IMG/VR virus record: IMGVR_UViG_3300045988_020078 | Length of the DNA: 5,589 nt | Reading direction: 5' to 3' (one strand) | Source of the DNA: a virus | Shown here: one piece after another, positions 143 to 5,589 of the stretch | Position numbering within the stretch: position 1 is the first letter of the stretch | Layout: each line of letters opens with the position of its first letter | Made by a program: the position numbers and the translations under genes | The notes under the pieces: generated by a model | The model's database searches: none | Told to the model about the DNA's origin: nothing | What the model saw: the letters and a program-made list of their open reading frames with translations, nothing else

Positions 143-1147
143 TTATGCTTTCGGCTCACGCCACTTTTGTTTTAGCTTGTCTTTTTCTTTCTGAATGTTG
201 AGATAGGTTTCATAATCCACGCTTGTGTTCTGTTCGAGATTGACTAAACTTTGTATTGCGCTGCGTCTGCGTTTGGCTTTAACCTCTCTCAGCTCGTCGG
301 AATGTGCCCTAAAATAGTTTTCTGTGTCTTGGCTGGTATCTTTATCTAGAATCTTATCAAAATAGCGTGGAGGCCTTTTCTCGCGTCCTCCTGCGCATAT
401 GATGCTATCTGTTTTCAAGATTTCATCTTTATGTTCATTCAGATACTTTTCGCCGATTCCTTTTGACATGATTCGGAATTCTGGTTCTCGACCTTCCATC
501 CAGTATTTAGCCGCTTGCTCTTCGCCTATGGCTTTCTTGTTGACGTACTGTGCCACATATGCGTAGCTGCCCGGCTGCGCTGGTGAAAAGTCTATCATGC
601 CTTTGCCCCAGATTTTTTGTAACCACTCGCTTTTAAAATAGCTGTTGCCCTTTTGGTTTTTGTACCATTGTGCATCCGGTGGTTTTAGTCCGAATACTAT
701 CGCGTGGTAGTGTGGTCTCTTTGTTCTGTCTCCATATTCGGCTGCTAGGAAATACTTTATCGGCTTCTTGTACGCTTTCCGTAGCCGTTTCAGAAATAGT
801 TGCACGTCTCGCTTGCTTACTGTCTGACTTTGAATGCTTCTGTAGCCTTTGATGATTTCGCCGTATGGAATATGTTCATCGTCATACGTTAGTGTTAGAA
901 AAATTACATCATCCCATTCTTTGGCTTCTAGTTCTATTCTGGTTGCCCATTGTTCTGCTATTTGTTTACGACAATACTCACACTTACCGCATGGTAACAA
1001 TGCGAATTTTTCTTTTTTGATTCCGTCCATGATGTCCGCTTGTAGTCCTTGTTTTGATAGGTTCTCCAGACTTCCCCACAGTTTTGGTTTTTTCGTATCC
1101 ATTTGAAATACTAATGGTTTTGTACATGGCATTTTTGTTACTGGCAC
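143..1147 (-). CDS. VP4: Microviridae replication initiator (VP4, phiX174 gpA-like HUH rolling-circle endonuclease)
   Basis: The 334-aa ORF has RCR motif 1 FLTLTY (aa 83-88). The HUH motif is HYH followed by AIVFG (aa 146-148, nt 704-712, checked as CAC TAC CAC). The two-tyrosine catalytic motif YVAQYVNKK (Y197 at nt 557-559, Y201 at nt 545-547) is nearly identical to phiX174 gpA YVAKYVNKK. There is also an N-terminal CxxP...PCGKCxxCR cysteine cluster typical of microvirus VP4. The start is ambiguous. The track start at 1147 is GTG, preceded by AAGGAAG with a 3-nt spacer. The first ATG is at 1132 (MPCTKPL...), which matches the usual VP4 N-terminus better. Stop is TAA at 143-145. Confidence 0.93.
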   Translation of the reverse strand: MPVTKMPCTKPLVFQMDTKKPKLWGSLENLSKQGLQADIMDGIKKEKFALLPCGKCEYCRKQIAEQWATRIELEAKEWDDVIFLTLTYDDEHIPYGEIIKGYRSIQSQTVSKRDVQLFLKRLRKAYKKPIKYFLAAEYGDRTKRPHYHAIVFGLKPPDAQWYKNQKGNSYFKSEWLQKIWGKGMIDFSPAQPGSYAYVAQYVNKKAIGEEQAAKYWMEGREPEFRIMSKGIGEKYLNEHKDEILKTDSIICAGGREKRPPRYFDKILDKDTSQDTENYFRAHSDELREVKAKRRRSAIQSLVNLEQNTSVDYETYLNIQKEKDKLKQKWREPKA

Positions 1148-1174
1148 AAGCTTCCTTGTCTATCTTGTGCCAGT
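1140..1174 (-). promoter_or_regulatory. Perfect inverted repeat / stem-loop over the Rep translation-initiation region
   Basis: CTGGCACAAG (1141-1150) is the exact reverse complement of CTTGTGCCAG (1164-1173), and A1140-T1174 extends the stem to 11 bp. The loop is 13 nt (1151-1163). On the minus strand the loop reads ATAGACAAGGAAG, so it carries the only SD-like element upstream of rep. The stem contains the GTG at 1147-1145, and the ATG at 1132 lies 8 nt (7 nt from the A1140-T1174 extended stem) 3' of the stem. Confidence 0.55.
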
Positions 1175-1207
1175 TGACACCCCGCTTTCTTTATATATTA
1201 ACTTGTT

Positions 1208-1228
1208 GTAGTCGTAGTAGTAGTAGTG
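1208..1228. repeat. Trinucleotide microsatellite GTA GTC GTA GTA GTA GTA GTG
   Basis: Read directly at 1208-1228. It is non-coding, directly abuts the first TGTTGAAAC repeat and overlaps its first 2 nt. Confidence 0.8.
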
Positions 1229-1406
1229 TTGAAACTGTTGAAAACTCGTTTTTTTAACGTTATTACGTTTATTTATTGCCTTTTTGCTTGTTGAAAACTT
1301 TGTTGAAAACTTGTTGAATTGTTGAAAGTTCGTCATTATGACGAAAACCTTTGTGCAACTTTATGTTGAAAACCTGTTGAAAGTGTTGAAAACTCAAGTT
1401 TTCCAC
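1227..1406. repeat. Iteron-like array of TGTTGAA(A)(A)N repeats in three clusters, with one inverted copy
   Basis: Plus-strand copies: TGTTGAAAC 1227-1235; TGTTGAAAAC 1236-1245, 1289-1298, 1301-1310, 1364-1373 and 1384-1393; TGTTGAA 1312-1318; TGTTGAAAG 1320-1328 and 1375-1383. A degenerate TGTTGTA lies at 1204-1210 and a partial GAAAAC at 1343-1348. The inverted copy is GTTTTCCAC at 1398-1406. Spacing within clusters is 8-12 nt. Cluster starts are about 62 and 75 nt apart. Confidence 0.9.
1329..1345. other. Small perfect hairpin inside the repeat region (TTCGTCA-TTA-TGACGAA)
   Basis: The 7-bp arms at 1329-1335 and 1339-1345 are exact reverse complements, with a 3-nt loop. It lies between repeat clusters 2 and 3. 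Confidence 0.5.
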
Positions 1407-1434
1407 ATTCTCTATTTTCTGGATTATTGTTACT

Positions 1435-1464
1435 AAAAAAGGGGGATGTTTTGCCATCCCCCTT
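1435..1464 (-). terminator. Rho-independent terminator immediately downstream of VP2
   Basis: The minus strand reads AAGGGGGATG-GCAAAA-CATCCCCCTT, followed by the rest of a T6 run (plus-strand A6 at 1435-1440). The stem is a GC-rich 8-10 bp with a 6-nt loop, starting 7 nt after the VP2 stop (1471-1473). In the plus direction the tail (CCTTTCTTAGTTTCC) is weaker. Confidence 0.65.
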
Positions 1465-1470
1465 CCTTTC

Positions 1471-2328
1471 TTAGTTTCCTTTGTATGCGTTGAATGCGTC
1501 CATATTCGGCATAATCGGCACTCTTCGGTTGTATTTTTTGTAGTTTCCTGCTGTGTCTTTGGCTGCTTTGCCGGCCTTTTCTACTGCGTCTTGGGCTTTT
1601 TCTCCTGCTTTTGCAAGACCTGAACCTAACTTGCTGGCTGCGTAGCTGTATTGTTGCGCTTGTTTTGCGCTTGAGGTTGCCAGCTCGCTTGCTGCCTGTT
1701 CCCAGCTTTTCGCACTCTTAAGCTGCTTTGCGCTGCTGGCCTGTTTTGCCAGCTGTAAGTATTTGTCTGCTAGCTCTGCTGTGTTGTTGCCGTACTCGTA
1801 CATTGCGGATACGCTTGCAGCTTGTGCGCTCTGCTGGTTGTAATGTTGGCTTCCAATGCTTGCAGATGCTCCCGATGGTGCGCTTGTTGCGCCGTTCGTC
1901 GCTGCCAGAATAGGATTGATGCCCGCTGCAATCATGTCTTTTACAGTGTCCTGATAGGCTGTCCCGCGCATTTCCTTTTGAAATGCTCGTTCTGCTGCTG
2001 CTTCTGCGCTGTTGTATTTTTTGGCGCTTGCTTGGCTTCCAGCATTTGCGAGGTTGCTCAGCAGTCCGCTCATCATTTGCAGTGCGTTTGCGGTGTTTAC
2101 ACTGCTTTGATTCCCGAACGTTGTGATGCCTGTTGGCGTGCTGATTTGTGTTGCGCCAATCTGCTGCGGTGCTGTTAGGCTTCCGGTCGTGGTCTCGTTT
2201 CCTGTGCTGCTCTCGCTGCCTGCCCCTTGGCTGTTTTTGGCGCTGCTTTGGTTACTGCTTGTTATGATGCCTGTTAGCATGCTTAATCCTTGCATGAGGT
2301 ACGGAAAAAGTTTCAATAATGTTTCCAT
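1471..2328 (-). CDS. VP2: Microviridae minor capsid / DNA pilot protein (VP2, functional analogue of phiX174 H)
   Basis: The 285-aa ORF lies directly downstream of VP1, the conserved VP1-VP2 order. It has an N-terminal hydrophobic segment (LSMLTGIITSS) and a low-complexity Q/A/S/T-rich body. It contains the AAGINPILAA motif I recall as conserved in gokushovirus VP2, and an A/K/Q-rich helical C-terminus. ATG is at 2328-2326 and TAA at 1471-1473. No SD is visible upstream. Confidence 0.75.
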   Translation of the reverse strand: METLLKLFPYLMQGLSMLTGIITSSNQSSAKNSQGAGSESSTGNETTTGSLTAPQQIGATQISTPTGITTFGNQSSVNTANALQMMSGLLSNLANAGSQASAKKYNSAEAAAERAFQKEMRGTAYQDTVKDMIAAGINPILAATNGATSAPSGASASIGSQHYNQQSAQAASVSAMYEYGNNTAELADKYLQLAKQASSAKQLKSAKSWEQAASELATSSAKQAQQYSYAASKLGSGLAKAGEKAQDAVEKAGKAAKDTAGNYKKYNRRVPIMPNMDAFNAYKGN

Positions 2329-2366: not shown

Positions 2367-4046
2367 TTAGATTCTTTCGATGCCGGGAATGCTGTAGATT
2401 GGCATTTCGCGATACCAGTCTTCAGTGAAGTAGAAGTCACACAAGAACTGGTGGCTTACGTTGCTTGTCACAGCAATTGTTCGGTCGATGTTCTGTGTTC
2501 CTTCCTGGATCCATTCCGCTGAGAGACGCGGCAGATTTTTATAGTAGTCTGCATAGTGCCATGCGTCCAAACTGGTCTGATAGTTCGACCGCATTTCTCC
2601 GGTTACGTAAGAAGGTTTGTATCGGTAATCCGCCCATGCCTCCTGATAGCCGAAGATTTCGTTATCTTCGGTTGTGCCCTGTGCATAGATTTCACGGTTA
2701 TATACCGGCTGTTCGCCCAGTGCTGCCAGTCGCGGGTCGTAGTAGGTGAATCGCCCGCCACGTGTCCACTTGGTTGCAAGTCCCTGTTGGTAGCTGTGTT
2801 CTACTCGTACTACTGCCAGACCGATGATGTAGCCGTATTCGGTCGCTGCATAGTCCACCATCTGCTTACTGCACGTGGTTAGGCTGTATGCTGCCGTATT
2901 GCCCAGTGCCTGACCGGTTGTGGTGTCCGTCTGGCTCGTCTGGACAACCTGATTGACATTGATTGCGATGCGCTGCCCGCCGATGTACTCAGGAATCTGT
3001 AGACGGCTGTCCGGACTTGTTACGCCCCATGTACCAGACAGGAATTCACGGTATCGCGTGCCGTTTCGTGCATCTGCTTCGAAGATGTGCTGCAGTGTGA
3101 TGCTCATGCGCAAGTCTGCAATGCTGATTGCACTTACTCCGCTGAGGTCTGCCATCATCCAGCCGCCATCACCTACGCTGCCAGTAGCGCCGTATGTTCC
3201 GCTAAATTCCAATTGCGCTTTTTCGCCGGGTTTGTTGTACTCCTTTTGGTATGTAATCGTGCCGGCTTTGTTGCTTGTCTGTGTTGCTCCAACTGTCATT
3301 GTTATTGAAGTTGCAGTGTCTAAGTATTCTCCGTTTGATTGCCCCAGTCTGATTGGTGCATTGCCGGTCAGGCTGATTTCCATAGGGTCAGATTTCAACG
3401 GGTATGGCAAACAGGATGTGAAGTAGTCGTGGAACTTTCCCGCTTTGGCTGGTTTTCTCGCATAGATGGCTGCTTCGTTGGTGCTCGTGGTATTTTTCGG
3501 TTCATTTACGCTTTCTGTTTTTACCGTTTCGGGATTTGTTACGTTTTCGGCATCATCTGTTTTTTTATAGCCCAGCATCAATGGTGCTTCAAGGTTCTCG
3601 TCTCGAAACCATTCGTTGTAAATCATGGCGTATGCACGCGCCGGCAGCGCGTTTACCTTGATTTCGTTTTTGATTCCGGTCGGCAGTCCGAAATAGTCGC
3701 CGATGCTGCCATTGGCAAGACCACTTATTCCGCCGATTTTGCATGTGGGTGTGCTGTATTCGGTCTTTTCTGCCCAGTAGTTCGTATCGTTCTCACCGAA
3801 CATATTTTCCCAGTGTTCCCACAGCAGACGGCATGGTACAAAGAAGAAATAGGTGTCCATGTAGCAGTTATCCATGATAGGATAGATGGGAGTGCTCATG
3901 CGGATAAGTCCGTTCAGGCGCACTTGTGCAGTATCGCCCGGTAGTACTTCGTCACAGTAGATTGGCACTAGCTCGCCTTCGTTGATGGTCGTTAACAGCT
4001 GGTGGCTTCGGTCAAATTTGCTTCGCGGTCGTTCCATTCGCGGCAC
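2367..4046 (-). CDS. VP1: Microviridae major capsid protein (VP1, phiX174 F-like)
   Basis: This is the largest ORF (559 aa). Its N-terminus, RSKFDRSHQLLTTINEGELVPIYCDEVLPGDT, closely matches the conserved gokushovirus VP1 N-terminal block (RSxFDxSHxxKTTxxxGxLIPIxxDEVLPGDT). Size and position are typical. The codon at 4046 is GTG, and the first in-frame ATG is at 4037 (MERPRSKF...). Neither has a clear SD. Stop is TAA at 2367-2369. Confidence 0.94.
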   Translation of the reverse strand: MPRMERPRSKFDRSHQLLTTINEGELVPIYCDEVLPGDTAQVRLNGLIRMSTPIYPIMDNCYMDTYFFFVPCRLLWEHWENMFGENDTNYWAEKTEYSTPTCKIGGISGLANGSIGDYFGLPTGIKNEIKVNALPARAYAMIYNEWFRDENLEAPLMLGYKKTDDAENVTNPETVKTESVNEPKNTTSTNEAAIYARKPAKAGKFHDYFTSCLPYPLKSDPMEISLTGNAPIRLGQSNGEYLDTATSITMTVGATQTSNKAGTITYQKEYNKPGEKAQLEFSGTYGATGSVGDGGWMMADLSGVSAISIADLRMSITLQHIFEADARNGTRYREFLSGTWGVTSPDSRLQIPEYIGGQRIAINVNQVVQTSQTDTTTGQALGNTAAYSLTTCSKQMVDYAATEYGYIIGLAVVRVEHSYQQGLATKWTRGGRFTYYDPRLAALGEQPVYNREIYAQGTTEDNEIFGYQEAWADYRYKPSYVTGEMRSNYQTSLDAWHYADYYKNLPRLSAEWIQEGTQNIDRTIAVTSNVSHQFLCDFYFTEDWYREMPIYSIPGIERI

Positions 4047-4062
4047 TTGCGCGAAATGGTTT

Positions 4063-4506
4063 TCACTGTTTCTGTTCGTTTTCCTTTACCTCCTCCTTCT
4101 TTTCTTTCTCTTCTTCTGTCGGCTTCTCTGTCGGCTTCGGCTGTTCGGTCTGCTGCATCTGCTGCAGCTGTTCCAGCGTTTTGGCTGCAGTTTCGGCTTT
4201 TTCGTGCATCGTCACGATATCTTTCGGCAGATTTTCGAGGTCGGTTCCTTCGGTGTATACCACGCTTTTGGCTTTGATACTGGTATCTCCAGCTTCCAGT
4301 CTTGCGATTGCGCTTGCAAGGTCGTAGCCCTCGCCCGCTCGCTGGATTTTTTCGTATGTGTTCTCATCTGGCTGCTGTATGTAGTCGGTAGTGCCGTTTG
4401 GTCGTTTGACTGCTTTCCACGTTGGCGCGGTCTTGCTGCCCGGATTGTTCTTCACTCTCTCGGTTGGCATTCCGTAGTATCTCACCATTGCATCAGGACT
4501 TAGCAT
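4063..4506 (-). CDS. Putative internal scaffolding protein (VP3-like)
   Basis: The 147-aa ORF lies immediately upstream of VP1 with a 16-nt gap, the VP3 position in gokushovirus-type genomes. It has a strong SD, GAAGGAGA, 6 nt before the ATG at 4506. The C-terminus is an acidic, low-complexity E/K-rich tail. The call rests on size and synteny. I do not recognise a strong family motif. Confidence 0.55.
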   Translation of the reverse strand: MLSPDAMVRYYGMPTERVKNNPGSKTAPTWKAVKRPNGTTDYIQQPDENTYEKIQRAGEGYDLASAIARLEAGDTSIKAKSVVYTEGTDLENLPKDIVTMHEKAETAAKTLEQLQQMQQTEQPKPTEKPTEEEKEKKEEVKENEQKQ

Positions 4507-4747
4507 TGGTCGTCTCCTTCAGGTCGATGAGCCGTGCGATGTGTTCAGGCTCCGCCTCGCTCATGTTGCCGGTTTCGGTGTCGAATTCGCCTAGCTCTAC
4601 GAGCGAAATATCTTCGATTTCGCTCGGTTTGCTTTCGTTGGCCTTCCATCGTGCCGTCCGGACTGCCTGTGCCCTGTTGTTCTGCAGGAACGGCTGAGAG
4701 TAGCCGTTGGTCAGTGAATCGTGGAATGAGTAGAATTTCAGCTTCAT
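4493..4747 (-). CDS. VP5/ORF5-like small non-structural protein (proposed phiX174 gpC analogue in gokushoviruses)
   Basis: The 84-aa ORF starts MKLKFYSFHDSLTNGYSQPFLQNNRAQAVRTA. This fits the MKxxxxxxxDxxxxxYxxPF...A.R pattern I recall for gokushovirus VP5. The SD AAGGAG lies 7 nt before the ATG at 4747. Its end overlaps the VP3-like start by 14 nt, suggesting translational coupling. Confidence 0.55.
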   Translation of the reverse strand: MKLKFYSFHDSLTNGYSQPFLQNNRAQAVRTARWKANESKPSEIEDISLVELGEFDTETGNMSEAEPEHIARLIDLKETTNAKS

Positions 4748-4759
4748 GTTTTTTCTCCT

Positions 4760-4876
4760 TTACTCTTTGTCTTTGCTTGCATCCTTCAGTGCGTGGTAGA
4801 TTTCGTCGAGCTTTTCAAGGATGTCCATCATCAGCGCGATTGCTTCCTTGACGTCCTTGACCTTAATCAGTGCCAT
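4760..4876 (-). CDS. Hypothetical 38-aa helical, slightly acidic protein (below the ORF-track cutoff)
   Basis: Hand translation gives MALIKVKDVKEAIALMMDILEKLDEIYHALKDASKDKE, ending in TAA at 4760-4762. The SD AGAGGTGA (plus-strand tcacctct, 4881-4888) has GAGG 7 nt before the ATG at 4876. The ORF fills an otherwise empty gap in a tightly packed operon. There is no TM segment and no recognisable family. Confidence 0.4.
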   Translation of the reverse strand: MALIKVKDVKEAIALMMDILEKLDEIYHALKDASKDKE

Positions 4877-5026: not shown

Positions 5027-5407
5027 TTACACCCCCTTTCTGTATTTGTTTTCGCGTATGTCAATGTGTACAAAATTAGTATATCGGATAACTCCGCCTT
5101 TGTCAAGTATGCTATCTGCATATTCTGCAACTTCTTTTGAACTTTTTCCCTTTACTACGATATCAGCTGCCATCCCTTTGCAATGGTAAGATGCTTTTGC
5201 TCCGCCCACGTTTTTGTTGTGTTTTACGGTTCTAAAACCGCTGTTAATGGTTACTGGCAGATTGAAGTGGTTTCGGATTTTTTCTAATGCTTCTATCAGT
5301 TGACTGTCGATGAGAATGTTGTCTGTTCCGTCTTTACATGCAAACTCGTTTGCTTTAAAGTGTTCGGATACTCTTACATTGTCCTCTTTGCTGTATGCTA
5401 ATAACAT
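5027..5407 (-). CDS. Zinc D,D-/L,D-peptidase of the LAS fold, M15 family (Peptidase_M15_3 / M15A-like); putative peptidoglycan hydrolase
   Basis: It carries the signature SYHCKGMAAD, matching SxHxxGxAxD (nt 5162-5191; H codon checked at 5183-5185), plus a downstream FVHID histidine (nt 5066-5068). The N-terminal SEHFKANEFACKDG block is typical of M15_3 proteins. I place the start at ATG 5407-5405 (MLLAYSKE..., 126 aa), because AAGGAG (5416-5421) lies 8 nt upstream. The track start at 5461 has no SD and sits inside the predicted -10 element. Stop is TAA at 5027-5029. Confidence 0.88.
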   Translation of the reverse strand: MLLAYSKEDNVRVSEHFKANEFACKDGTDNILIDSQLIEALEKIRNHFNLPVTINSGFRTVKHNKNVGGAKASYHCKGMAADIVVKGKSSKEVAEYADSILDKGGVIRYTNFVHIDIRENKYRKGV

Positions 5408-5451
5408 GGTATTTACTCCTTTTCTGTTAAATACATTGCTACTTTTATTAC

Positions 5452-5480
5452 ATTCTATCATATTTTTTGGAAGATTTAAA
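5452..5480 (-). promoter_or_regulatory. Candidate sigma70-type promoter for the peptidase-to-capsid operon
   Basis: The minus strand reads TTTAAA (5480-5475, also 10-5), a 17-nt spacer, then TG-A-TAGAAT (the -10 at 5457-5452, with an extended -10 TG). It lies in the AT-rich segment between the rep stop and the peptidase, about 45 nt upstream of ATG 5407. Called by eye only. Confidence 0.35.
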
Positions 5481-5589
5481 GCTTTTTTAGAATTTTAATT
5501 GATATATTAGTAACTCGGTTTTGCTCCTTTGTTTTGAAAGCGCTTTAGCGCCTTGCCGTGCGTAGCGTATGCGGAGCTCGGCTAAATCC
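5471..5589. repeat. Right copy of the 119-nt terminal redundancy (circular-genome overlap)
   Basis: Identical to nt 1-119. The window ends inside the repeat. Confidence 0.95.

Follow-up and report, generated by a model that had tools for sequence, protein, structure and literature searches.

A DnaA-box-like repeat array beside the rep gene of gut gokushoviruses probably belongs to an oriC-like unwinding cassette

Replication of the Microviridae is the textbook example of a rolling-circle mechanism that operates independently of the bacterial initiator DnaA, and to our knowledge nothing has been reported on the origins of the gokushoviruses. Here, we analyse a DNA stretch of 5,589 nt (IMG/VR virus record IMGVR_UViG_3300045988_020078; 'the window' refers to this whole stretch) that carries an array of TGTTGAA repeats between the genes for VP2 and the replication protein VP4 (Rep). 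The sequence data suggest that the array, a (TAG)n trio tract and an AT-rich element probably constitute a cassette of ~220 bp, which would copy the basal unwinding system (BUS) of bacterial oriC and act through DnaA of the host.

Layout of the locus

Positions 1–119 of the window are identical to positions 5471–5589. This exact 119-nt terminal direct repeat indicates that the window represents the circular genome of a gokushovirus, 5470 nt in length, whose assembly ends overlap. All genes are carried by the minus strand, and the nearest GenBank records are human-gut gokushoviruses with 86–87% identity. The array sits in the 323-nt gap between VP2 and VP4 (1148–1470). An earlier note on this DNA had described this gap as long and non-coding, and indeed no open reading frame (ORF) with a protein-family match was detected in it. 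The features of the locus are as follows, with the repeat copies denoted as boxes:

143–1147, minus strand: VP4/Rep gene (PF23343)
1140–1174, minus strand: hairpin with perfect arms of 11 nt and the loop ATAGACAAGGAAG on the coding strand, overlapping the VP4 start
1186–1202, plus strand: AT-rich element TTTCTTTATATATTAAC of ~17 bp, 5' of the triplet tract, candidate for a DNA-unwinding element
1203–1226, plus strand: DnaA-trio-like tract TTG TTG TAG TCG TAG TAG TAG TAG (5'-TAG-3' equals 3'-GAT-5')
1227–1244, plus strand: tandem box pair TGTTGAAAC (1227–1235) and TGTTGAAAA (1236–1244), abutting the trio tract
1245–1288, plus strand: AT-rich spacer of 44 nt containing AACGTTATTACGTT
1289–1328, plus strand: box cluster 2, comprising TGTTGAAAA (1289), TGTTGAAAA (1301), TGTTGAATT (1312) and TGTTGAAAG (1320)
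1329–1345, plus strand: small palindrome TTCGTCATTATGACGAA, an inverted repeat between clusters 2 and 3
1351–1359, plus strand: TTGTGCAAC, widely conserved, between clusters 2 and 3
1364–1392, plus strand: box cluster 3, comprising TGTTGAAAA (1364), TGTTGAAAG (1375) and TGTTGAAAA (1384)
1399–1407, minus strand: inverted box, TGTGGAAAA on the minus and TTTTCCACA on the plus strand
1439–1464, minus strand: terminator-like GC-rich hairpin of 10 bp immediately downstream of the VP2 stop, with a T-run behind it on the coding strand
1471–2328, minus strand: VP2 gene

The order on the plus strand is AT-rich element, trios, box pair, 44-nt spacer, four boxes, palindrome and TTGTGCAAC, three boxes and the inverted box. 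The hairpin at 1439–1464, which looks like an intrinsic terminator, forms the boundary of the module on the box side.

The repeats resemble DnaA boxes

The window contains nine exact copies of TGTTGAA, all on the plus strand and all within 1227–1390, starting at 1227 and 1236, at 1289, 1301, 1312 and 1320, and at 1364, 1375 and 1384, respectively. Start-to-start spacings within these clusters of two, four and three copies are 9, 12, 11, 8, 11 and 9 nt. There is no further copy in the remainder of the 5589 bases, the chance expectation is 0.97, and none of 200 dinucleotide shuffles reached nine copies. The array is real and highly non-random, and its conservation in relatives shows that it is not a chance feature. 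The same-strand copies in clusters of two, four and three, their absence from the rest of the genome and a final inverted copy had all been recognized by eye in the earlier note, which also named a search for a conserved array in related microviruses as a check. These observations are borne out, the inverted near-copy being TGTGGAAAAC at 1398–1407 on the minus strand with one mismatch to the repeat motif. The extent given there has to be amended at its start: position 1204 is not a box and falls in the triplet tract. The inverted box, which could form an imperfect hairpin with 1384–1394, is present only in some lineages.

What are these repeats? TGTTGAAAA is the reverse complement of TTTTCAACA. 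Among 150 B. subtilis sites bound by DnaA in vitro, position 6 is A in 45, and the table of bound sites lists TTTTCAACA three times, GTTTCAACA once and TTATCAACA many times (PMC4447404). A scoring matrix with position-specific weights (PSSM) was derived from this table, with the proviso that the specificity of B. subtilis DnaA may not be that of the phage's host. With this matrix the consensus TTATCCACA scores 14.2 bits, TGTGGAAAA, i.e. the inverted box, 11.9 bits and TGTTGAAAA 10.7 bits, which is above the median of 9.45 bits for bound boxes (taken over 47 of the 150 boxes in the table); TGTTGAAAG and TGTTGAAAC score 8.1 and 7.45 bits, respectively. Sites of at least 8.27 bits occur eight times in the whole genome, and six of these eight lie within 1236–1407. 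The array has seven boxes within two mismatches per 230 nt as compared to a maximum of five in 500 simulations, that is, box density exceeds chance.

Sequence variation among relatives points in the same direction. In homologous columns, TGTTGAAAA is exchanged only for TGTGGAAAA or, in several genomes, for the perfect box TGTGGATAA. The positions of the proximal pair read TGTGGAAAA in relatives, the second box of cluster 2 reads TGTGGATAA or TGTGGAAAA, and the first box of cluster 3 alternates with TGTGGAAAAC. When the 362 boxes of 42 aligned modules are considered, position 4 of TGTNGAA is T in 324 and G in 38 and never C or A, and the inverted copies are all TTTTCCACA. The repeats, some ten in all, are thus most likely binding sites for DnaA of the host, mostly of the TTTTCAACA variant.

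The locus could also be read as a set of sites for a different host factor, as a XerCD/dif site, as a gene for a small protein or as a non-coding RNA, and to these readings we assign next to no probability. TGTTGAA is only one base away from the Spo0A box TGTCGAA (0A box; TGNCGAA), and TGACGAA is found at 1339; however, the fact that position 4 is never C in the 362 boxes excludes Spo0A boxes. The best matches to the dif sites of E. coli and B. subtilis have 10–12 mismatches in 28 positions, the same as in the shuffled null. ORFs of 58 and 62 amino acids overlap the array and might encode a small protein, but the minus-strand ORFs at 1160–1336 and 1269–1457 have no family match, no reading frame is conserved across the array in the relatives compared, and in lineage B of the relatives (described below) the strand that is open runs antisense to every gene. 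Rfam, scanned with the whole window at E values up to 1, returned nothing relevant, which argues against a non-coding RNA.

Two palindromes accompany the boxes. AACGTTATTACGTT is located at 1257–1269, and its core TTTAACGTT..ACGT is common to many lineage-B modules; TTCGTCATTATGACGAA is exchanged for other sequences in some lineages. Both may be sites for further factors.

A trio-like tract and an AT-rich element adjoin the boxes

In the bacterial BUS, a short GC-rich spacer separates the DnaA boxes from the DnaA-trios, which the box strand carries on its 5' tail, and an unwinding element comes next. Such a system is searched for by a box within two mismatches, a spacer of at most 16 nt and at least three NAN trios; the GC cluster between trios and box averages ~4 bp (PMC8287927). 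In the window, TAG TAG TAG TAG (1215–1226) abuts the weaker box of the tandem pair, the stronger box being 9 nt away. The latter, at 1236–1244, has two mismatches to TTATCCACA and is within the limit of the BUS box rule. With strict trios, the BUS rules find a single site in the genome, which is at the array. On the other side of the trios, duplex stability over 15 bp reaches its genome-wide minimum in a segment starting at 1186–1190, and every aligned module has an AT-rich stretch at the homologous position. Order, polarity and spacing match the BUS of bacterial oriC. E. coli oriC, when read directly, presents AT-rich 13-mers and then TGTGGATAA at R1, that is the same polarity as in the phage module.

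The earlier note had overlooked both the TAG triplets and the AT-rich element, which would make the array an oriC-like unwinding module. Yet the module is not located at a chromosomal origin or next to dnaA/dnaN, but between VP2 and VP4 of a microvirus of 5470 nt. That is, the cassette is BUS-like in its proposed working but is not an oriC.

The cassette is conserved in two lineages and in either orientation

An unbiased set of 42 modules was retrieved with a pattern that specified three boxes only. In the alignment of this set, ACTTGTTGTAG..GTAGTAGTAG is almost invariant and the boxes are kept, whereas the inter-cluster spacers have diverged in sequence. The pattern of the later scans included TAGTAGTAG, so that trio conservation therein is not independent of the search pattern; across 118 genomes, the three box-proximal TAGs are fixed and the fourth triplet reads TAG, TCG, GAG, CCG, ACG or AAG. 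Between the trios and the first box, relatives usually have exactly 4 nt, which are G/purine-rich and of varying sequence. The boxes of 139 unique modules are found at offsets of 25 and 33, of 87, 99, 110 and 118, and of ~162, 173, 182 and 191 from the trio anchor. Spacings within clusters are only 8, 9, 11 or 12 nt, and the gaps between clusters, 54 and 44 nt, are constant in length with diverged sequence.

The ~220-bp cassette is present in 118 genomes whose Rep proteins are 34–96% identical to that of the window. It was found in 45 of ~3459 GenBank records of Microviridae, all of them from mammalian gut and never annotated, and in well over 100 microvirus contigs of IMG/VR. The carriers fall into two deeply divergent gokushovirus lineages:

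Lineage A (11 genomes, including the window): Rep identity of at least 80%; cassette between VP2 and VP4, upstream of rep; box strand antisense
Lineage B (107 genomes): Rep identity 34–45%, VP1 identity 38–48%; cassette downstream of VP4; box strand sense in 106 genomes and antisense in one

In MG945447 (L004), a 218-bp cassette (4471–4689) is precisely inverted between flanks that are collinear with those of relatives (compare L030, 1017–1234). The cassette of this genome is closest in sequence to lineage A, with 81% identity to the window, which suggests that cassettes have been exchanged between the lineages.

The cassette is apparently used irrespective of its orientation and of the side of rep on which it lies, which argues that it acts on duplex DNA rather than as a signal of the viral strand. 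This bears on the possibility that the array is a single-strand signal, either a packaging signal or an origin for the complementary strand, e.g. a DnaA-box hairpin of the type used by an ABC-type primosome. We regard this as highly improbable. Pairing of the last with the inverted box is possible in the window and in some relatives (1384–1407) and gives a hairpin whose stem includes a DnaA box, which resembles the A-site of the ABC primosome as reportedly described by Masai and Arai. However, many members lack the inverted box, the strand of the cassette differs between the two lineages and is reversed in MG945447, and the array is unpaired in centroid folds of the single strand, where the z-scores originate from the flanking hairpins. 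Moreover, separate structured elements with a fixed strand would fit such roles better. The complementary-strand origin suggested in the earlier note, comparable to phiX pas, G4 oric or the Ff minus origin, thus gains no support.

Alternatively, the repeats could be iterons or an operator, bound by Rep itself or by another DNA-binding protein of the phage. Their iteron-like organization and the fact that the array always adjoins the rep gene would agree with this idea, which had likewise been put forward in the earlier note, but we consider it quite improbable. Iterons co-vary with their Rep, whereas motif and layout remain unchanged here across Reps that are 34–45% identical, be it upstream or downstream of the gene. 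Nearly the same cluster as formed by the window's boxes, TGTGGAAAACG-TGTTGAAAACAC-TGTTGAAAG-TGTTGAAAC, recurs in a tailed-phage contig (L108, ~2200–2700) with an unrelated HTH_36 initiator. Furthermore, the motif equals a DnaA box bound in experiments and alternates with the perfect DnaA consensus. As to other binders from the phage, VP5-like proteins were detected in lineage A only. A motif that is constant across divergent Reps and shared with L108 points to a host factor. The view that the array is a DNA-level, putatively protein-binding repeat set next to rep is judged correct, and among the binders that had been listed, the evidence favours a host factor, most likely DnaA.

In L108, the box cluster (TGTGGAAAACG/TGTTGAAA) is followed by five iterons of ~18 nt (GATGAGGAAnAAAGTTCC), an AT-rich stretch and more boxes. 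All of these elements are placed inside the gene for the HTH_36 replication protein, and the region looks like an origin within a gene.

As to the host, a search of genome contigs with the pattern TTGTTGTAGNNGTAGTAGTAG was swamped by coding repeats for Thr/Asn linkers and gave one true match. L239 (CALBJK010000280.1), a complete module-bearing microvirus contig of 5840 nt, is binned in a metagenome-assembled genome of 'uncultured Prevotella sp.', which is a weak host hint. An exact look-up of the VP5 protein returned metagenome contigs only, and PLSDB yielded no match. Shine-Dalgarno-like sequences (AAGGAG/GGAG) precede VP5 and VP3; together with box tolerance of the B. subtilis type and C. 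difficile-like trios, this may hint at a host in the Bacillota.

A hairpin beside rep is a probable partner of the cassette

When the 170 nt on either flank of the cassette were inspected, perfect inverted repeats of 9 nt or more were present on the AT-rich side in 100 of 112 genomes, as compared to 13 of 112 on the box side. The corresponding hairpin, located at 1140–1174 in the window, has the loop consensus TA(T/GA)CAAG on the coding strand, which reads TATCAAGTAA in lineage B. Exactly one such hairpin per genome is found in 109 of 114 genomes, beside rep and never on the non-coding strand. The conserved loop is carried by 38 distinct stems, which is evidence of covariation. In 107 of 109 cases, the AT-rich end of the cassette is separated from the hairpin by 25–216 nt (median 112), irrespective of cassette orientation. 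Hence, the strand of the hairpin is constant, and it is the cassette that is oriented with its melting end facing the hairpin.

In lineage B, the complement of the loop reads TTACTTGATA and includes ACTTGATA, which in phiX174 is the core of the viral-strand origin (AACTTG/ATATT). The hairpin is a probable strand-specific rolling-circle origin, i.e. the nick site of Rep, for which the cassette would serve as duplex opener. The phiX-like 8-mer ACTTGATA resides on the non-coding strand here, which our model leaves unexplained. Chp2, phiMH2K and SpV4 have no consistent CTTGATA hairpin and hence are of no help as to the nicked strand.

Several lineage-B loci (L030, L013, L039) additionally have GC-rich palindromes of alternating purines and pyrimidines (gcgcgcacgcgcgc...) between the rep-proximal hairpin and the AT-rich end. 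Such palindromes are also present at 2548–2580 of L003 and at 4728–4778 of MG945447; the window is without them.

Could the array be a DnaA sink or a regulatory array that involves no unwinding? In this scenario, the boxes would titrate DnaA from the host oriC, like datA and the DnaA-box clusters of B. subtilis, or else they would tether the DNA or control transcription in dependence of DnaA-ATP, for which the eight DnaA boxes in the T5 injection-stop region provide a proposed parallel. A dense same-strand box cluster, with six to seven boxes in 230 nt, would be suited to this task, T5-like phages carry conserved DnaA-box sets, including TTATCAACA, outside of any origin, and the microvirus records PQ006258 and MK496725 have box clusters without TAG trios. 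Nonetheless, titration would leave unexplained why the TAG tract is invariant, why the spacer is fixed at 4 nt, why an AT-rich element is placed at the right end with the right polarity, and why this end consistently lies by the rep-proximal hairpin. Trios and AT-rich element argue for more than titration. Regulation of transcription is disfavoured by a position that is not conserved relative to promoters (upstream of rep in lineage A and downstream in lineage B), and a search for sigma-70-type promoters in 1050–1550 found no match. We therefore view a sink or regulatory array as unlikely.

A possible mechanism of origin opening

Taken together, box sequence identity, architecture, conservation, independence of orientation and adjacency to the hairpin are direct observations, from which we infer DnaA binding, unwinding and the link to Rep. 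In the oriC-like unwinding cassette that we favour, the three phased clusters of boxes would be occupied by DnaA-ATP while the phage DNA is in its double-stranded replicative form. From the trio-proximal box pair, a DnaA oligomer would then be passed onto the TAG strand, whereupon the adjoining AT-rich element would melt. Next to the hairpin, i.e. the probable nick site of Rep, the resulting bubble may make the origin accessible to the HUH Rep, serve to load the host helicase, or do both. Phage replication would then be coupled to the DnaA status of the host.

A number of points weigh against this model. DnaA is known to be dispensable for rolling-circle phages such as phiX174, and the module is missing from the classical gokushovirus isolates Chp2, phiMH2K and SpV4. 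In the window, only the inverted TTTTCCACA comes closer than two mismatches to TTATCCACA, and the AT-rich element is short (~17 bp). The strict BUS rule alone is satisfied in 13.6% of random genomes, and the match to this rule is accordingly only supporting evidence. The inverted cassette of MG945447 turns its boxes rather than its AT-rich end to the hairpin, which implies that immediate adjacency of cassette and hairpin is not absolutely required. Finally, box arrays would also be used for titration only or for control of transcription.

A more far-reaching scenario, which we advance only tentatively as it is rather less than an even chance, combines these elements: a rolling-circle phage with single-stranded DNA would possess a working miniature oriC, the opening of which by DnaA licenses nicking by Rep or loads helicase for plasmid-like duplex replication and persistence. 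An entire group of abundant gut gokushoviruses would then be dependent on DnaA and tied to the cell cycle of the host, and they would have the cassette, as a mobile origin-opening module, in common with further microviruses and with tailed phages.

Similar modules in other phages

Box clusters made of canonical TGTGGATAA boxes are present in four further microvirus records, two of which also have an AT-rich stretch and five to six TAG triplets. KT264804 (L390, ~1035–1200) displays an AT-rich stretch, five TAGs, GGTGC, TGTGGAAA TGTGGATAAC and then further boxes. ORF p4, annotated over the six TAGs and boxes of phi-CA82 (L391, ~1690–1830), is probably a mis-annotation. PQ006258 (L392, 3775–3835) has five tandem TGTGGATAA directly after rep, and MK496725 (L403, ~3990–4110) has six boxes.

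Modules were also found in viral contigs of double-stranded DNA, in which an AT-rich stretch is followed by (TAG)3–5, a GGGG-like spacer, a tandem pair of TGTGGATAA or TGTGGAAAA and further clusters (L248/L257/L272, L256, L263, L265, L270, L271, L276, L299/L310, L317, L322 and L332). They are intergenic and near genes for RecT, exonuclease or chaperonin-like proteins, with no dnaA nearby. We know of no description of such phage-borne unwinding modules.

As controls, 12 evenly sampled microviruses were examined, 11 of which lack a TAG x3 and do not exceed one to three PSSM sites in 230 nt. Chp2 and phiMH2K likewise have no such box cluster and no TAG x3 tract, and the AT-rich SpV4 reaches five PSSM sites in 230 nt but has no TAG x3 tract. 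Some candidates from the searches were discarded. Contigs of ~95 kb matching TAGTAGTAG..TGTGGAAAA have single matches in coding regions, which are not modules; about a dozen gut viral contigs of ~94–97 kb (L283, L302, L308, L316 and others) share TAGTAGTAGATACTTGTGGAAAA within a conserved coding region without further boxes, representing a chance match; and most other TGTTGAA x3 matches in viral contigs are coding repeats.

A DnaA-box module for origin opening has not previously been described in phages with single-stranded DNA, which are thought to be DnaA-independent. Our literature search found no paper linking Microviridae with DnaA boxes, in agreement with the earlier note, which knew of no equivalent in this family. 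The conserved cassette of DnaA boxes, trios and AT-rich element beside rep suggests use of the host initiator in many gut gokushoviruses, and cassette and conserved-loop hairpin together are a candidate for the gokushovirus origin. These phages are very persistent in the gut, and the cassette could be one way in which they are stably carried. Phage boxes and trios might also be matched to host oriC, offering a handle for host prediction, and annotations such as ORF p4 of phi-CA82, which overlies a module, could be corrected. If our interpretation is true, the BUS is a portable module of mobile elements and not confined to chromosomes, with similar modules in other microviruses and in double-stranded viral contigs.

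Other features of the window

The remaining genes of the window, all on the minus strand, are:

2367–4046, minus strand: VP1
4063–4506, minus strand: scaffold-like protein
4493–4747, minus strand: VP5
5027–5461, minus strand: M15 peptidase

A second conserved non-coding element, GGATTTAGCCGAGCTCCGCATACGCTACGCACGGCAAGGCGCTAAAGCGC, is located 3' of VP4 (1–142 and 5471–5589 of the window; the minus strand is the coding sense). It is 92–95% identical in otherwise unrelated microviruses, its orientation relative to the genes is fixed in both lineages, and it folds as a hairpin with two compensatory base-pair changes. Rfam contains no match to this element.

Comparison with known systems

Within its own family, the window can be compared with phiX174, whose Rep belongs to the same superfamily and whose origin core ACTTGATA is part of the complement of the lineage-B loop, TTACTTGATA. 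However, the phiX174 origin (CAACTTG/ATATTAATAAC) is inside rep (gene A) and is not a hairpin, and phiX has no DnaA boxes.

DnaA boxes also accompany the element's own initiator at the origins of P1 (oriR), F, pSC101 and R6K. The arrangement of host DnaA boxes beside an element-specific origin and an AT-rich region is shared by these plasmid and phage origins, by L108 and by the cassette. The former use theta replication and iteron-binding Reps, whereas an HUH rolling-circle Rep and a full trio tract are present here. The nearest phage precedent found is the injection-stop region of T5, which is non-coding and contains about eight conserved and precisely arranged DnaA boxes, including C6-to-A variants (bioRxiv 10.1101/866236). 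In contrast to the boxes of the cassette, those of T5 are paired inside inverted repeats, no trios or unwinding element have been described, and the proposed role is membrane tethering and not replication (bioRxiv 10.1101/866236).

With E. coli oriC (R1/R4 with the tau, I and C sites), the cassette shares close weak sites of the same orientation after a stronger site. Relatives provide an instance of this, in which TGTGGAAAAC or TGTGGATAAC is followed by two to three TGTTGAA, and the unwinding element precedes TGTGGATAA with the polarity of E. coli. However, the spacings of the phage boxes are 8, 9, 11 or 12 nt instead of a regular 11, and neither IHF or Fis sites nor GATC-rich 13-mers were recognized in the cassette.

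Compared with the bacterial BUS, the cassette differs in being carried by a rolling-circle phage of 5.5 kb with single-stranded DNA rather than lying by dnaA or dnaN. Most of its boxes are the weaker C6-to-A variant, its AT-rich element is short, its box clusters are denser, with spacings of 8–12 nt, and its partner is the Rep-proximal hairpin and not a helicase-loading region. On the other hand, the short G-rich spacer between trios and box, the tandem box pair and the further box clusters of the phage modules are all reminiscent of the bacterial BUS. The trio tract of C. difficile oriC2, 5'-CACCTACTACTATTACTACTATGA-3', which reads TAG TAG TAA TAG TAG TAG GTG on the other strand, is almost identical to the phage tract. 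B. subtilis oriC, with DnaA-boxes 6/7 of incC, trios and an AT-rich 27-mer (Richardson 2016/2019, Pelliciari 2021/2023), has the same parts in the same order and polarity as the phage cassette. Mutagenesis of the B. subtilis trios revealed that trios 1–3 are necessary and sufficient while trio 4 is mutable, and likewise, trios 1–3 of the phage cassette are invariant and trio 4 is free.

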